From the NCBI GenBank assembly GCA_977017645.1, contig OZ360227.1, positions 101,680,001 to 101,744,000 of the forward strand: a DNA stretch of 64,000 bases, in the 5' to 3' direction. Origin of the DNA: Torpedo marmorata. Lineage: Eukaryota. The notes below the pieces were generated by a model. That model worked only from the letters and a program-made list of their open reading frames with translations. It was not told where the DNA came from and ran no database searches. The position numbers and the translations under genes were made by a program. Shown here piece after piece: positions 32,731-50,892 of this stretch (positions within the stretch are counted from its first letter, which is position 1; each line of letters begins with the position of its first letter).

Positions 32731-32812
32731 ATCGACCATATACTCCCCTAGAAACGAATCTGTGACCGAAACATCACACAAATTCGGTTCTACAGGGTAT
32801 ATATAGACGACG
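32731..32812 (-). ncRNA. mir-10b: miR-10b precursor (mature 5p at 32777-32799)
   Basis: Minus strand TACCCTGTAGAACCGAATTTGTG followed by complementary arm ACAGATTCGTTTCTAGGGGAGTA; located between Hox4 and Hox5. Confidence 0.98.
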
Positions 32813-39766: not shown

Positions 39767-40033
<267 letters not shown>

Positions 40034-40353
40034 TTATTACACGTAATAGTGAAAAATATGAAATAATGCAGCTTCCGATAAATATCTCAGCAGAACAAAA
40101 TAAGCAAGTTCGATATGTAAGATATACACAATTTAATTTTCAAGGGAAATCACTGATGCATAAAATGATGTAGTTCCTGATACAATTGCTACAACTGTTC
40201 AAAGCAACAGCTGATATTCCGATTTCATTCAAATTGTTATAGTTTTGCAAATATCATGCTTCATTTAATTTTATTAAATCACGTTGTTTCTCAAAGTACT
40301 TCGACAAAAATTCGAATGTATATCAAAAGGGAGAATGGCGGCATTGAGCATAC

Positions 40354-40861
40354 CTTGACTGAGGTGAAGCTTTTTCATCCATGGGTATATCTGCATCTGC
40401 TGTGCTGAATCCTTGTCTAGCTGCTCACTTTCAGGTTTGGGGCTGTTCGTTGCTTTAAGATGCTCATCGGTAACCGGTGATGTATCCTGACCACCGCGAT
40501 ATGAGTGACTTGGCTCTGTGATAGTCGTCCCCGTTTTAATGGAACTGTCTGATGGGTTTATTAAAGATCCTGAGCAGAATGCAGGATCAGGAGACTTAGT
40601 TCTCGCAGCAGAAGAACTATGGAAGGTGTTACTGGTTGTCTGCGTGTAGTTAGTAGACCTTTCACTATCACCACGAAGATTTGAGTTGGAACGAGTCATG
40701 CTGAGGTCTATCCCAGTGTAATCATAGCCATACCTGGTGGAAAGCATCGTCGACTCCCTAAAATGCTCGCCCACAGACGAGGCATTCCCATAACTCTGCA
40801 ACTGATAATCGTGGCCATTTTGGTAGCGACCTGGGAAGGAGTTGAAAAAGTAGGAACTCAT
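40354..40861 (-). CDS. hoxd5: HoxD5 exon 1
   Basis: [21 protein letters not shown]...[11 protein letters not shown]...[12 protein letters not shown]; donor CAAG|GTATGC. Confidence 0.96.
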
Positions 40862-41120: not shown

Positions 41121-42613
41121 CAAACAAGAAGGAAGTCTGGCTCAATTCAACAAGCAAAATCGAAAGACTTTGATGTTCAAAGGGTATTTGTATGTTTTTT
41201 TCGGGAATATTTTCCGTTTTTTAAGTGGTTCACGGTTTAGGATATAAACTATGAACACTTCTGTTATCTGAATTTATCAATTATACATTGGAGACATGTA
41301 TAGAACACATGCAAAACGTTTATATAAATAGAAAACGAATGTGCGCACTCATTTAACATCACAATTATTCTCTGTTGTGATGTATTAGAAAATTGTGCGG
41401 GTCTCAAAATTTCATGCGATCATTCCAATAATATAAATTTCTTCCAGATAATTCAACACGTTTTGTTGCATAAATCATATATTTTGTATTGGAATAAGTG
41501 TGTTGAATCACAACACTTTTACTTCATATTAATCCCAAAACGTAAGTAAAAAATAGCCGATAGGGTAAAAATCCTACATATTCCCAATAATTATTATAAC
41601 TTCGCAATTCTTATTGCAATCTTTACTCCAGCCGTTTAGAAATTGTTAAGACCCGAAGAAATATTTTGTTAGGTTAAAAACCTATATCCAATGTCACATT
41701 TATATTCATTACACGTTTCAACAAAATTTACAAAGACTGCAGTGTTATTTTCGTATAATATTGAACTAAGCTTATTTACTCAATGATCATATACTTTTAC
41801 AGAGAAACGGCTTCACAAAGTTTGCAGTTCTACTTTCATTTACAAACACGTGATCCATCTTTTACTGTCTTTGCTTTCTATTTTCATCGGCCATTGATTT
41901 AATAAATAAATAAAAAATAAGATTTTAAATTATTTTCTATATTATTTCCTTTCATGACCAGTTAAATCGGTGCCAGTCACAACAGAAGCAGTAACCGAGA
42001 ACCTCAGCAGAAACGCGCTACGCACTTCTTCCTCATTGTGAAATTCAACTGCACGGTAGCGTTCCCCGAATTTACGCTCGAGCTGATCAGAATATTTCAA
42101 TTAGACTTGTTGCAAGATCTGATCAATATGTATACTGAGGTCATTACCAACCCGATATGCACAAATATGGGAAACGAATGGTGCAGATTGCAAGGACTGC
42201 ACTTTCGGTCCCGTCGTCTGTCTCCGGAGGGATAGTTTCACAGTGCAGCAACTCTATTTTAGACGCATCGAATCATATGCAGGGAAACTGCGACATCAAT
42301 AAATGTAATATTTGGAAACAGTATTTGCTTTTTTCTGTTTGATTAATTGGCGAATTATATAATGTTTGATTGTGATCCCGAACAGAACAAATAATGAAGG
42401 CAATGAAACGATGTCAAAACACTGACTGCATTGAGTCTGAATAATTTGGCAAAGATCCGTCCTTTGTCGCAGTAATACTTAACACACTTGGATTTCAGTT
42501 ATCTGTTGCTGGGTGTGTTTTCTGTGATTAAGAATGGGCACTCCCTGCTCTACATATGTAAATGTATGAGGACACAGAGAAATAGGATTACCATATTATT
42601 TGGCTACTGAACA

Positions 42614-42647
42614 CCCCCCCCCCCTCTCTCTCTCTCTTTCGAGCGCG

Positions 42648-42694
<47 letters not shown>
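42614..42694. repeat. Compound (C)n(CT)n(CG)n(CA)n microsatellite
   Basis: Direct reading. Confidence 0.97.
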
Positions 42695-42697
<3 letters not shown>

Positions 42698-43294
42698 GAC
42701 AAACACACGTGCAAAATTTAGGTTGAAATAGTATTTGATTTATAGGTTGTGAGGAAATATAATTACAGTGTTTACAGGGTCGTCCTATAGAGTTGGCAAA
42801 TCGAGTTGTTTATGTTCATTTGCCTGATACCGTTCAGTGGGTACATTAGAAAATGGAGCTAAAATCTTGCAAAACAATTCATGCAAAAAATAGTACACAA
42901 TCGGGATCTGGGCCCACTGTCCATTGTACTATGAATTTGCACAGATCTCCGATTATTAGAATGTTTTCAGGATGATAGTTTCCCCGTAGTACTATATTGG
43001 GCCTAGACTGAAGGAGTTCTAAACCTAAGTACGTCATTAAATAGATATGGAAATATATAACTTGAGATGAATTAAGTTTAAACGGAAAGATATGCAATAT
43101 TTTTATGTAACTTTTAGATTAAATGTCATAACAGTGGGGTTGGTTTCACTTATGGTTTTGAATGTTGATTTATGATTTTCTCTTTGATTCTGGGCTTAGA
43201 TCGTAAGTGCCACAATCAAACTGATTGTCCAGCACTCCTTAATCTAATATTGCAGCAGTCCAATAAGTAAGCCGCGTTGATACTGTGGAAAAAA

Positions 43295-43409
43295 GAAACC
43301 AGTTCGGGCCCTACATACTAATTTTTTGATGATTTTTCGTTTTGCAGCGCGTTGGCCATTGTAATAAATTTCGGAGAAGATCGCGATCTGGAAATTCGTT
43401 TGTCAGTCC
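43295..43409 (-). pseudogene. Candidate decayed homeobox, putative HoxD6 pseudogene exon 2
   Basis: Minus strand GGA CTG ACA AAC GAA TTT CCA GAT CGC GAT CTT CTC CGA ... ATT ACA ATG GCC AAC GCG CTG CAA AAC GAA AAA .. ATC AAA ... TGG TTT aligns by eye to ELEKEFH(F)NRYLTR...IEIANAL..TERQIK.WF. Confidence 0.55.
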
Positions 43410-45709
43410 TGTAAAGAGTGAGCAATTTTCTGGGATAGCAGTGAATTAATCACTGATATATACTAGATTAAATATCTGGGATTCGGATTTGGAGTTGTTT
43501 ATGTTTATGTATATGTTTTTTAAAAATGTAAATAAGCACGATGAATTAAAAGACAGTCAACGTTGTTGAAAGTCAAATGACCTTTTGTCACAGATGTTAA
43601 CTGAAAATATTTCAATTAAAAGAGAATTTTTGCAATTTCATTGAAATTGGTTATTACCATTGAACGTTGTCGCTTTACTATTGAAGGGATATAGTGAACA
43701 AATTTCTTCACATTTAAGTTTCCAAATAGAATTCTGGATGTTGAGCTAATAGCAGACACACAAACATATATACATCCAGAGATAGCGATATTTACCATTC
43801 AGAAATGTCAGAACCTTTCGGTTGGGTAACCTCATATAAACAGCCCCATCTTAAAATCGTCAGTGGAGGCGTGATTTGGAAATATGTACTTCTGAATTAA
43901 ATTTATAATGACGATTTACATTTTTGTTCGGATTTTTTTAACCAAATAATTTCCCATTAAGAGACTTGATGTCTCCCATGAGGAGACATCAAGTAGGCTT
44001 TTTCACGCAATTCTAAAAACGGACAGCATTTACTCCGTGCAAAACAGATTTAGTTTCACAAGAAAAATTTAACAAATATTTAACGTTCATTTTTTTAAAA
44101 CGAGGGACAAGGTCTTAATTAATAGAGGTTGCACGAGAATGTTTTCCTGTAGCGAAGGCAGACATGTTGAGCATTATGTGAAAATACATTGTAGAAAATT
44201 ATTGAAGCCAACCACTGCTTGACAATTGAGGTGCAAATGAAACTGCTTTCTCCATAAAGCAAAATATTAAATATTGTGCACTATATTGTCGCCATCCTGA
44301 CATAATTTAATTTTTTTTCTTGTGAGATATGCCTTAAGTAGATAATATGTATTTACGTGTTTATCTTGTGATTTAAAATGGTCACAATATTTTTAAACGT
44401 TTATTTGGTTCCAGCAATACTTTGTGACCTAATTTTTAGTGGTTAGTGTTTCGTTTCGACAACGTACCTGTCGGTCTGTCCAATAGATACAGATAGAAAA
44501 GGAGTATTTAATAATTTATCATTTGCAAACAGATACAAGTTGCCATCGGTAAATTAATATCTATATAATTATACGCTACATGGGTCATGTTGATATATTA
44601 TCTTTTTATTCGTTTCCTATAAATAATTTGGTGTCAGCAAGATGAATTGGTTTATAGTCGAATAATATCGACTTTCAAGTGCATGCAACTAGAAACTTCT
44701 TCCTTCATCTCTGACGCAGAATGATGAACAATTGTTTCCGAATATTCAATCAGCGGAAATACATACAACTGGCTGAGAAATAAAAACAGAAATATCCACG
44801 TTACTTTTCTGCCTGTGTTGCACTTATTTCCCCAGCAGGCAGTTTCAATTAATAATTAATATTGAAAAATAAGAAATAAATTGCGATATTTCATGTGCTG
44901 TATTGTGAAGTTATGAACATGATGTTGGAACTTTTTATACCAAATAAGAAACATTTAACAAATTGAATAGTTTTTTATATACAATACAAATGTATGAACA
45001 ATCGCAAATCGGCAGTTCACTCTGACAAAAAAAGTATAAATATCCATGACTCTCGTCATTAACATATTGAAAGCGTGTCTGATGTTAACCGCAGGAAAAT
45101 TATCGTAAGAGTACTCCTCATTTGCGCAAACTGCTGTCACGTGGTAAAATATTATTAAAATGTTAACTAAACGTTTGCTCCAAAATCCCATAGCTCTCGA
45201 TATTTCTAAAGCCAGTGATCGCCGCTCGGACTTATTAGGATCATTAACACAAATCCATCACTCATTGCTCCAGCTTTACATCTGAGAGAGCAACCTTCAT
45301 ACACTCGGCTGCAGGATAGAAAATAGCATGCAAAGCCATAGATCAGCAAAAACAGACTGAAGCTAACAACCACTGAAGTAGTTCACCAGGCAACCTTTCC
45401 GCAAGATAACAACAATCAGAGAGCCATCACTAATAAAAGTAACGAAATCAAAAAGTCTTGAATGAACTAGACAATCCGATTAATCGCCACAGGAGATGTT
45501 AGATGCAAATGTCAGCCGTCTTGTAAGCAAGGCTGTCATCAGAAAGATAGGCACGGATCACAACTCCCCGTCTCATGGCCGAAAATAAATGTTTAATTAA
45601 TCTGCCGCACAGCCTCCGTTTATACTGAATCGACCACCGGGACCTAGTTAGAAAGCGCCATTTGAAAATCAGTCTTGCCCTCGACCTGACAACCAGCTGC
45701 CTCGAACTC

Positions 45710-45821
45710 AACCAGTGAATACAACGTCGTTGCCTCCCATTATAACACGTCTATCTGCAGCCCAACAGACAAGAGCAAGGGACTTACCTGTTTCATGACG
45801 CTTCCCCAGAATAGGAATCAT
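45710..45821 (-). pseudogene. Candidate decayed Hox6-type exon 1 start
   Basis: ATGA-TTCCTATTCTG resembles codons for MSSYFV; GGCAACGACGTTGTATTCACTGGTT resembles codons for GQLPLYSSG with single-base gaps. Confidence 0.35.
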
Positions 45822-46182
45822 GTTGATTTTGTATTCCATTTGTACCGTTTCGATTATCAAAATAACTTAAAATAGGCAAAGCGAACTGCAGGGTGAATGA
45901 GAGACTGTAACAGACGTCACAGGTCTGTGAGAGAGATCAGATTGCTGAATCCCAGCATGTGTCGAATGACTTCCTCATAGTTATACAGAAAAGGATTGAA
46001 CACCGAGAGTAGAGCGGAAAGCCTCTCTTTTTTTCCCAAGCAGCTGGCGCCAAATACCCACGACAAAAGCAGCCAAGGAGAGATACCGACAGAAAAGACG
46101 GTTTGAGACGAGTTAGCAGCGGAATGCAGTGAAATATTCACAAGGGAAATCATGAAAAGGCCATGAACGCAGTTACTTGATT

Positions 46183-46227
46183 CACATGACCAAAACTAGC
46201 CAATGGGAGCGCCGACGCCCTCGTAAA
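46183..46227 (-). promoter_or_regulatory. Orphan Hox-type promoter module (E-box + 11 nt + CCAAT, TCGTAAA)
   Basis: cacatg-accaaaactag-ccaat...ctcgtaaa; no intact gene within 5 kb downstream. Confidence 0.55.
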
Positions 46228-47025
46228 AGGTCCATTACAAAGTTGTAAATTTTCTTCAAACAAAAAGGAATTCGCAGCAATTCCTTGCGGATTTCGCAAG
46301 TACAGCTTGCAAGCGCCATGTTTCCTTTAACGAGTTCTTGGCTACAGCTATTTGTTATACAGTATAACATACATTGTAACGAACATTCTAACCAACTATA
46401 GAGGCGGAAGTGCAGCAACAGCGTAAACACGAAGGGAAATAACTCTCATGACAGTGGGTACTTCACAACACAAAACCCTGCAATTTGATAACCTAGGACA
46501 CTTTTAGTTCAGGTTTTCAATGCGTGAAGTATAACGTTTTTTTTTCGAAAACAACTCCTTGCATGTTTGATTCACATTTCCCAATGTTGGTAATTATGAA
46601 TCAGACGGCTTCTGATTTTGCTTTGACATGATTTCCTGATCCCTTTGATTTGACCGAACTAAGAGTAGGAAACAAGCGAACATGAAGCACGTTTGGCCAC
46701 TGAGTTAAATCTGACCATGGCGCCTGCCTTCATTCATACAAAACCCTGTAATGCAAGCTGTGTGACAACTTACCATAAATGTTCCATTGTGCGTTCTGCA
46801 CAGGTGAGAAAGAGGAGGTTGGTTCTCAGCGTGTGAAATTATCTGGTTACATATTAAGCCCCCTATTTCATTTTGCCCCTCCTGTTTTCAGTGTTGGAGA
46901 TAAAACAAAACGAAGCAACACATCCACGCTTTCAAAAGTAATGAAGTTAAAATGATTAAAATATAGCTGCGTTCTGGGTAAATATATTTAGCGCTCATGA
47001 AAAGTGTAAAATGTTTAAATGCGTT

Positions 47026-47670: not shown

Positions 47671-48940
47671 TTCATACATACATACGTATATATGAAATGT
47701 AACGCGCTGTCTCTGCAGGTTAATTCCCCTCAAAACTGCTTGTTGTTTTCATCATTCATTCCTCCAGTAAGATTTCTATCATCTAATAAGATCACGACGA
47801 GATCCCGATCTAGTGCCATTGTACAACCCGTCGGAGCTTCTCATACAGCGAAGACCAATAACTGAGCCACTAATGTATAAGACCAACAAACGCAAAATAA
47901 CTCTATTTCATTATGTGGTTTGGAATTTGATTTGAGTGATGGTGATTGTCTAGATTCTTTCTGAAAGGAGGGTTATATCAGAAACACTACTGGGGTAACA
48001 CGGGTGTCCACACTATTTGGGAATTGTCATTAGAATGTCCGAATAAGTGTTAAATAAGGTGCTTTATAATTGTACAAATAACATTCCCATTCGAGAAGAC
48101 AATTACGAAAGAGAAATCTTAATATTCTTACATTTTTTTAATAGAATCGTTTGTTTGCTTGGTTAACTGGGACCACACTGCTATTGTTTGAATTAGATCA
48201 AATGTGTTTAAAATAAAATGAAGCTAGTTTTTTTTATTGATACATATAAAATGCTGCATAAATCTTCGCAGCAAAGTTTGCATATGAGTCTCTTCTCATT
48301 TTGAAGTAGTTAATTGATCTTCAAATTGGCAACCGTGCCTGGCAGAATTAGGACATTGTGAGACTATGACGCCCAGTTATGCATTATATCAATTAATTGA
48401 ATTACATGTCTGAAAATTGTTTATGAATTTATCTTAACATCATTGCAATATCACAGTGGATTCTGGTATCTGCTGTTAATAACATGATACTACGAAGTAA
48501 CTATGTATTTAGTTGTTATGTAACATTGGTCTGTTATTCCTACCCCTCCTCAGAATCATTTCCTGTTTATCGTTTTGTTCAGCCTTACCATGACATTGTA
48601 ATTTGTACATAAAGGTGGACATCGAAAATTATCTATTCCTTTTCTAAGGGTTTATATGGAGCTTGCGCGCTGATCCTGTTAAAGTTGATCGTTGGTTATG
48701 TAAAGTCTAATGGGGAAAATGGAAGGTTATTCGACAACTGTAGATTCTGTTTGCGCCTCCAGCCTGTAAAGCGGAGAAGAATAAATTGGAACCTAGAAGT
48801 CTTCACTTTGCCGAGTGATTTGTAGTATTAGAATTTTATTGTCGGTTTTACGAGATTTGCTGATATAGGTGTACAGTTGACCGCAGTTTTACACAAAACA
48901 CTGACTGTTAAAGCGTCCTTTTAGCCACACATGAACCAGG

Positions 48941-48961
48941 CATGTGATTTAACTAGCCAAT
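48941..48961 (-). promoter_or_regulatory. Second orphan E-box + 10 nt + CCAAT module
   Basis: catgtg-atttaactag-ccaat; shares aactagccaatgg with the 46183 module. Confidence 0.5.
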
Positions 48962-49545
48962 GGCCACTCGAAGAACATTTAACTTAAGGCATAGATAAAC
49001 TAATATTCTCATCATTAACTTTTATAACTACATGTAAAAACACACCATCTTCAGTTTTTTTTCGTCCAGCGACCAGAACAGCCTCGCTGTGTAGCAGACG
49101 GACACCTTGTGACCGCAGAGGTAAACAAAACTCAAATACATTCGATTTAATCTCCTCGAAGCAGCCACAGAACCCTAGCTGCAGCGATCTCGGCTGATTG
49201 TCTCAATCAACCTATAATGATTCTCTATCAAGCACGCGTTACTTTTATTTTCTTTGGGACACTGGTCATAAAATGAAACAAGTACACAGTTAAATTTAAT
49301 CAACATTTATTAATTTAATCACATTCGACCATCATAAAAAGTGACTATTGCTGCGGAATACCTTTTTTTTTGCTTATGTTTATTAACTGCGTTTCGGAAA
49401 CAGGTAATTGTTGAGAATTTCCAGTCGCAATACACCACCAATTAGTTTACACGCACAGTAATTAAGACACATCGCAAGTGCACTGTTTTTTTTCTCTATC
49501 ATTAATTAAGTGTGTTCGTAATACATTCCAAATAATCCATTCTAT

Positions 49546-49951: not shown

Positions 49952-50247
49952 TTACTTGGTCTCTTTCTCTGTTGTGTCCTGCTCAGGCTCTTCCTGTTCT
50001 TTCTTGACCTCTTCCCCCTCATCGTCGTTCCGAGAGGTTGGGAACTTGTCCTTGTTGTTTTCCTTTTTCCATTTCATTCTCCTGTTTTGAAACCAAATCT
50101 TCACTTGTCTCTCAGTCAGTCCCAGAGCATGAGAGACTTCGATCCTTCGCTTTCGAGTCAGATACGGATTGAACAAGAATTCCTTCTCCAGTTCCAGGGT
50201 TTGGAATCGGCTGTAAGTTTGTCTCCCTCTGCGTCTACCAGGCGCTG
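49952..50247 (-). CDS. hoxd8: HoxD8 exon 2 (homeodomain)
   Basis: [70 protein letters not shown]; TAG-CAG tandem acceptor (alternative start 50244); joined CDS 240 aa. Confidence 0.97.
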
Positions 50248-50465
50248 CTAAACAACACGAGAAACACAAAAAACAATAAAGATTGGGTACAATGCACAAA
50301 ATGAAATAATAATCACAGACAAGAGCAACGACTTTTGCTTTGCTCGGCAATGTTACATAAAGAAACAGTCCCTATTAGTGCGATTACTACAGATAGCATT
50401 AAACACCTTGGCGGCAGAACTGAGCAGCAAAACGTGAGATGGAAACTAATTTTAATATATCCAAC

Positions 50466-50892
50466 CTTGAGGTCTCATCCAGGGAAACATTTGAGTAGGA
50501 GACGAGTTCTGATTTAAGTGCTCTGGTTCTTCGCCAATATTACTGCCGGACGATTTACAGTCAGGATATTGTACCAGATCGGCCTCTTGCTGTGTCGTAA
50601 AAATTTGCTGTCTTTGTAAGTTATCGTATCCGTAAAATTTAGAGGGGTCACCATGACACGTAATTCCACAAGGATTCTGTTGAAAGCCAGTATTAGGAAG
50701 TGCTGATGTCCCATGATGGTAAAATTCTTGAACTTGAGCTGGGTGCTGGAAGCTCGCGCCGCTGCTGGGACCATAGACCACAGCGTGTCTGCTAGTCACG
50801 TCCTGTGGAAACCGGCAGTCGTAGTAAGTGGGACTTAGGGCTTCTCCTGGCTTGTACTTGGAGTAAAATGGATTTACAAAATATGAACTCAT
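50466..50892 (-). CDS. hoxd8: HoxD8 exon 1
   Basis: [14 protein letters not shown]...[30 protein letters not shown]...[13 protein letters not shown]; donor CAAG|GTTGGA. Confidence 0.97.

Follow-up and report, generated by a model that had tools for sequence, protein, structure and literature searches.

Does the stretch between HoxD5 and HoxD8 still hold a remnant of HoxD6? HoxD6 and HoxD7 are inferred ancestral genes which, to our knowledge, no known jawed vertebrate has kept, and we know of no living orthologue of either. Any remnant would therefore predate the jawed-vertebrate crown and would lie at the limit of detection. True remnants of both would show directly, in sequence, that D5 to D8 were once complete in HoxD, and would mean that D6 and D7 were lost by decay in place while regulatory DNA was kept. 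Physical remnants would make the inferred loss an observation and would be among the oldest fossils of host genes. A preliminary description of a 64-kb window of Torpedo marmorata DNA (the window being the whole stretch analysed) had proposed such a fossil HoxD6 homeobox, and this proposal is examined here.

The HoxD cluster and its empty slots

The window contains seven homeoboxes, all on the minus strand, which we take to be those of HoxD10, D9, D8, D5, D4, D3 and D2 from cluster order and diagnostic residues. HoxD5 exon 1 showed 96% identity to a Narcine bancroftii protein and 68-87% to proteins of other chondrichthyans (9 of the 12 candidates matched), which marks the source as a batoid of the electric-ray type. 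The genome carries four Hox clusters, and in a homeobox search no homeobox between HoxD5 and HoxD8 was found among the 89 matches listed (150 of 166 candidates scored). The D cluster is without an intact HoxD6 or HoxD7. The reference genes HoxA5, A6, A7, B5-B8, C6 and C8 were taken from the same genome and named by cluster order and diagnostic residues; loci L010, L004 and L011 were the HoxA6, HoxB6 and HoxC6 references, and L001-L003, L006 and L009 the Hox5 and Hox7 homeoboxes. HoxC is GC-rich and expanded here, on a 392-kb contig (G000:C1163:90186-308333; L011, L014, L020, L026, L028), with Hox3-, 6-, 8-, 9- and 10-like homeoboxes and others of more posterior type; a Hox4- or Hox5-like one was not among the matches listed in the genome search. 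HoxC is reported as lost in catshark and skate (PMC3707753).

A blastn comparison of the D interval with HoxA, HoxB and HoxC of the same genome yielded three non-coding anchors, and the HoxD6 slot, bracketed by paralogous anchors, extends over 46106-41931. The element at 46283-46106 is promoter-like, with a CCAAT box and CATGTG, and is common to all four clusters, weakly in HoxC. The HoxD5 intron scores 15.8 bits against it. Between this element, which is the middle anchor, and the Hox5 promoter lie 5.0 kb in D compared with about 7.9 kb in A and 9.0 kb in B, the D slot being about 3-4 kb shorter. Further non-coding paralogous elements lie upstream of Hox8 (51309-51228, minus strand; blastn E 1e-5 to HoxB) and downstream of Hox5 (38371-38260, minus strand; E 3e-11 to HoxA and 6e-13 to HoxB). 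A 47-nt stretch at 47153-47107 (minus strand), 89% identical to a HoxC stretch at a non-matching position, is probably a repeat fragment.

Table 1 Features of the window discussed in the text
Feature	Position	Strand	Remarks
mir-10 precursor	32735-32806	-	Upstream of HoxD4; sole Rfam match in the Rfam search
HoxD5	39809-40861	-	ATG at 40861 starts exon 1; homeobox 39988-39809
3' anchor of the D6 slot	41861-41931	-	Paralogous to the HoxB6-B5 interval, blastn E 1e-5
Register described first (ELEKEF...EIANAL...IK...WF)	43295-43409	-	Chance look-alike overlapping the candidate at 43429-43332
Possible Hox5-like C-terminal tail	43299-43331	-	Low posterior, 0.2-0.5
Block alignable in relatives	43322-43450		Organism E: ungapped, 9 of 129 nt different
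Candidate decayed homeobox, codons 33-60, central Hox	43332-43429	-	From pair-HMM posterior and alignment; non-coding
Predicted upstream coding exon end	45788-45839	-	Donor 45787, in-frame acceptor 40831 in HoxD5 exon 1
Paralogous conserved element between Hox7 and Hox6 positions	46106-46283	-	blastn E at the corresponding position 3e-23 (HoxB), 2e-21 (HoxA) and 0.035 (HoxC)
Weak resemblance to homeobox codons 50-60, Hox7 slot	46857-46888	-	Not significant, decoy P 0.07-0.08
Hox7-type promoter and 5'UTR paralogue	48796-48964	-	Ends at a dead start codon, AAG at the ATG position, about 48803
HoxD8	50057-50892	-	ATG at 50892; homeobox about 50236-50057

The neighbouring Hox7 slot gave a much firmer signal than the Hox6 slot. 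The stretch 48964-48796 could be aligned to the HoxA7 and HoxB7 promoters from the CCAAT box via the 5'UTR to the start codon, and its part 48901-48796 served as an anchor, with blastn E values of 6e-10 (A7) and 7e-7 (B7). The alignment scores were 3916 (A7) and 3442 (B7) against null maxima of 1430 and 1395, and all eight other Hox promoters compared stayed within the null. Of these 10 promoters, only those of Hox7 thus matched. The stretch scored 45 bits, which is 38 above the local median. This stretch is likely a relic of HoxD7, a reading well supported within this genome. Behind it, a match to the Hox7 hexapeptide region at about 48672-48637 was weak (P 0.09 to A7 and 0.74 to B7), and the match to the homeobox end at 46857-46888, taken jointly with the match in the D6 slot, reached a decoy P of 0.04-0.08. 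Promoter or exon relics of C7 or A8 did not rise above the null in any of seven comparisons. Just behind the promoter paralogue, a non-coding exon could be defined by sites resembling an acceptor (48764) and a donor (48588).

Transcription across the D6 slot from a distal start is also predicted. The exon end predicted at 45839-45788 matches the N-termini of two shark HoxD5 isoforms in the NCBI annotation (tblastn E 2e-6 for P0005 and 5e-6 for P0024), and the exon would replace the conserved MSSYF start of HoxD5. Since its donor is at 45787 and the acceptor at 40831, the distal transcript is predicted to cross the whole D6 slot. Similar distal promoters are known for mammalian Hoxa5 and HOXC4-6. 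Over 9.2 kb there are 18 acceptor-like sites, among them the one at 43409.

The register described first

The preliminary description had aligned peptides on the minus strand to a HoxD6 homeobox from E15 to F49. The quoted peptides do exist, in order, over 43409-43295, and both the strand and the place upstream of HoxD5 are as given, 2.4-2.5 kb from the ATG at 40861 and within the slot bracketed by the anchors. The statement that EIANAL is typical of HoxA6 and HoxC6 holds in this genome for HoxA6 only, the corresponding motif being EIASAL in HoxC6 (and EIAHAL in HoxB6). The assignment of residues itself failed: the banded forward score of 5.3-6.5 bits is at the null level (shuffle means 5.3-7.7), compared with 10.8 bits in the other register described below. 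The checks that had been proposed gave no better result. An nhmmer search with three homeobox profiles returned no match at 43200-43500 among the 22, 24 and 25 rows listed, and the frameshift-aware protein alignment was beaten by 96-100% of 100 shuffles in each of 24 settings. DNA Smith-Waterman alignment at the candidate gave a best P of 0.18 (three of the 18 settings gave 0.18-0.22, the others 0.57-1.0).

Relatives had been expected to converge on a homeobox. In this register, the five alleles common to organisms E and G instead lower the score by 0.9-1.05 bits, moving the I34-, R28- and I45-K46-like codons off the homeobox. Although the letter at 43394 that gives the E-F look-alike is common to E and G, the 20-nt insert before WF occurs in organism G as well. 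The register described first is thus largely refuted, and that it should be the true one, in spite of the ordered words, is very improbable. What stands of the proposed fossil is its place in the D6 slot together with a weak signal in an overlapping register; the peptides quoted for it are at chance level.

A second register over the same stretch

Unrestricted pair-HMM forward scoring of the window's letters gave 11.2 bits, with the posterior on 43429-43332. The candidate codons 33-60 correspond to the end of helix 2, the turn and helix 3, and match homeoboxes of paralogue groups PG5-7 at 51-56 of 92 nt (about 55-60% identity). The alignment needs a 2-nt deletion and two 8-nt insertions, that is three frameshifts, and the W48 codon is lost; the landmarks are IAH at 43426-43418, QI.I at 43390-43379 and the K57-E59 region at 43343-43335. 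A look-alike of R24-Y25-L26-T27 at 43477-43463 had a posterior below 0.3. No ATG-initiated open reading frame of at least 45 aa lies over the stretch, and an open frame with W48, F49, N51 and R53 was not found at the candidate. The distance from the candidate's end to the HoxD5 promoter is 2263 nt, compared with 2272 nt (B6) and 1825 nt (A6) from the homeobox end to the Hox5 promoter. A search of the genome for the multiple copies that a transposable-element fragment would have returned the candidate itself as the single match and no near-identical second copy; as such a search misses paralogues of 70% identity, it excludes near-identical copies only.

The parameters, zones and exclusion of repeat windows in the tests of the candidate were picked after inspection of the data, and the P values and decoy rates below are to be read with this in mind. 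Locally the candidate stood out, with a shuffle P of 0.008-0.11 in 12 settings and the first place by local z among 142 windows of the interval, and under most global-background settings it was the best central-Hox match between D5 and D8. With other window sizes the local P depended on the profile, being 0.0007-0.011 for PG5-8 and 0.02-0.04 for PG4, and, for the non-central profiles, 0.10-0.23 for PG2-3 and 0.34-0.51 for PG9-10. Against decoys the result was poor. In the D6 slot, 35-67% of 60 codon-shuffled decoys equalled the candidate (12 settings), which came first in only 2 of the 12; in the zone 42600-44100, 12-42% of 60 decoys matched the window's letters as well, and with the CA-repeat windows (42350-42720) excluded, 21-24% of 250 decoys matched the slot as well. 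Among 6764 natural Hox-cluster windows, 8-29% reached the candidate's score, a figure inflated by repeats and by the GC-rich HoxC. On the window's own letters, the homeobox similarity of the candidate is not significant.

False signals of this size arise easily. In the scans for other parts of D6, unrelated exon-1 profiles exceeded expectation by 4-7 bits on the strand opposite to the Hox genes, and other queries reached 13-16 bits by chance or through shared motifs. On either strand, a number of unrelated Hox profiles gave moderate scores at 42344-42323 and 42101-42400, which is probably compositional. When the decay of HoxA6 and HoxB6 was simulated, 10-17 bits were obtained in 14-42% of the runs at a nominal divergence of 0.45-0.6 and in 6-20% at 0.8; a true remnant could therefore look like the candidate.

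Alleles of the relatives

Sequences of relatives at 90-98% identity covered the candidate in organisms A, B, C, E and G, of which E and G are more distant. The comparison took in seven of 24 sequence runs available from eight organisms; those of D and H did not align over the stretch, which does not prove that they lack it. B and C differ by about 7% across the surrounding 1.1-1.3 kb, and the block 43322-43450 is only slightly less divergent; organism G shows 18 differences and a 7-nt insert over 43275-43450. All the relatives are young compared with the gene loss, and the alleles common to E and G are unpolarised. Allele scoring used the differences listed, 6 of 9 for E and 13 of 18 for G; five of the E alleles are common to E and G, and one more is common to A, B, C, E and G.

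The six E alleles lift the unrestricted score from 11.2 to 14.5 bits (+3.3-3.4; P 0.023-0.025 against 4000 random sets of changes), with the largest gain, 3.8 bits, for the PG6 profile, and the listed G substitutions bring the candidate to 13.9-14.1 bits. Taken site by site, the five changes common to E and G add 4.3-4.5 bits in the register 43429-43332. At the score with the E alleles, the rate of equal decoys (250 decoy profiles) is 2-2.4% in the D6 slot, 0.4% at 42720-44100 and 8-10% over 9 kb. Simulation gave a comparable rise in 12-27% of real remnants versus 0.6-1.8% of equal-scoring chance matches. When the alignment is kept fixed, the E alleles shift identity by only -1 to +2 positions of 114.

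Hox6 or Hox5

Scans of the D6 slot for other parts of the gene were mostly blank: no exon 1, promoter, donor or 5' homeobox half of D6 stood out, and the promoter, exon 1, intron, exon 2 and 3' parts of HoxA6, HoxB6 and HoxC6 gave few low P values against 46100-41070. These were an AT-rich B6-upstream match at 44093-44023 and CA-repeat matches; a match of C6 exon 2 at 46036-45991 in the same scan had P 0.025 as one of 14 queries. A putative end of D6 exon 1 with a donor at 43736-43660 looked collinear by eye and was rejected, the PG6 exon-1 end at 43736-43685 having P 0.28 and lying outside the top windows.

The C-terminal end of the candidate points in another direction. With about 12-14 tails tried (6 groups at 2 lengths), the tail-shuffle P was 0.003-0.05 for PG5 versus 0.49-0.91 for PG6, and extension with the A6 tail had P 0.8. 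Because the tail fits Hox5 better than Hox6, the identity as HoxD6 rests on position. The remnant might accordingly be real but come from Hox5: HoxD5 exon 2 could have been duplicated in tandem long ago, or D5 could have overwritten a D6 exon 2 by gene conversion, with decay following. The best single-gene match is indeed D5 (11.7-12.3 bits on the window's letters and 14.6-16.4 with the E alleles, against 7.1-9.2 for A6), the PG5 model of homeobox plus tail reaches 16.5-16.8 bits with the E alleles, which 0-1 of 150 decoys equalled across 9 kb, and the PG5 tail adds to the score. However, PG5 was chosen after all those tails had been tried, the posterior of the tail is low and D5 has the base composition of the cluster; once D5 is left out of the PG5 model, the decoy P is 0.03-0.11 with the E or G alleles and 0.66-0.69 on the window's letters. 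Moreover, no copy of a D5 promoter, exon 1, intron or 3'UTR lies beside the candidate. We consider an origin from Hox5 improbable.

Discussion

The candidate at 43429-43332 lies in the D6 slot and is non-coding. Judged from the alignments and scores, it is possibly a decayed remnant of HoxD6 exon 2, and we put a homeobox fossil in the D6 slot at about even odds (0.45). Its history could have been as follows. Genome duplication would have left HoxD with D6 and D7, both of which would have died in place; deletions would have taken the promoter of D6 together with its exon 1 and the first half of the homeobox, and decay would have brought the rest down to about 60% identity. As regulatory DNA, the D7 promoter and the distal promoter that is shared would have been kept, so that the D6 remnant would now be intronic in a long HoxD5 transcript, with no protein made from it.

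The main competitor of the HoxD6 remnant is chance, that is, slow-evolving intergenic or intronic Hox DNA in which words rich in A or in CpG pass for a homeobox once gaps are permitted. The stretch would perhaps be a small regulatory element or an optional exon acceptor, and D6 itself would have been deleted or have decayed past recognition. The blank standard searches (genome search, nhmmer, Smith-Waterman and frameshift-aware alignment), the decoy rates of 21-67% in the slot on the window's letters, the false matches of equal size given by other profiles, the three frameshifting gaps within 98 nt, the missing other parts of D6 and the acceptor-like site at 43409 all fit a coincidence. Nevertheless, a coincidence would have to fall on the right strand and at the right distance from the D5 promoter, to be specific to paralogue groups PG5-8 and to climb in score with the alleles of the relatives, which chance matches did in about 1-2% of trials. 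We regard chance as a serious contender that falls somewhat short of an even probability. In favour of a HoxD6 remnant we also count the D7 promoter relic in place, since here a neighbouring lost gene left a firm trace.

Taken together, HoxD may keep fossils of both lost genes, in order and on the right strand: the D7 promoter and start at 48964-48796, traces of the hexapeptide and the homeobox end, and the 3' half of the D6 homeobox at 43429-43332. This combined picture is tentative, and we hold it to be a little more doubtful than not. For testing whether a promoter can outlive its gene, the D7 promoter relic is a case at hand. No description of a D6 or D7 remnant was found in the portions of the literature searched (including PMC2566872, PMC3242753 and PMC3985675); the main shark Hox papers and Matsunami et al. 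2010 may already list the paralogous elements. Text matches to 'HoxD7' proved to be the HoxD70 scoring matrix.

Compared with the HoxA6, HoxB6 and HoxC6 and the Hox5 and Hox7 homeoboxes of the same genome, the candidate has a B6-like distance to the Hox5 promoter. Unlike them, it is frameshifted, has lost W48, is without detectable codons 1-32, exon 1 or promoter, and has a tail nearer to Hox5. Remnants of Hox pseudogenes in situ are described for HoxA14 and HoxB14 of the elephant shark (PMC3707753), for the caecilian psi-HoxD12 (PMC4470032) and for HoxA7 of the bichir (PMC1845163). The candidate resembles these in being, if real, a decayed coding fragment at the position and on the strand of the missing paralogue, and differs in that they were recognised by aligning them with living orthologues, a reference that D6 and D7 do not have. 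The elements at 46283-46106 and 48964-48796 are comparable to the conserved non-coding sequences that Hox clusters have as paralogues of one another (Matsunami et al. 2010, cited in PMC3595034) and to the promoters of HOXA-AS3 and of HOXB-AS3, treated as paralogous Hox elements (PMC8330917); like such sequences, they have been kept between clusters since the genome duplications. The stretch 48964-48796 differs from them in that what has been kept would be the proximal promoter and start-codon context of a vanished gene.
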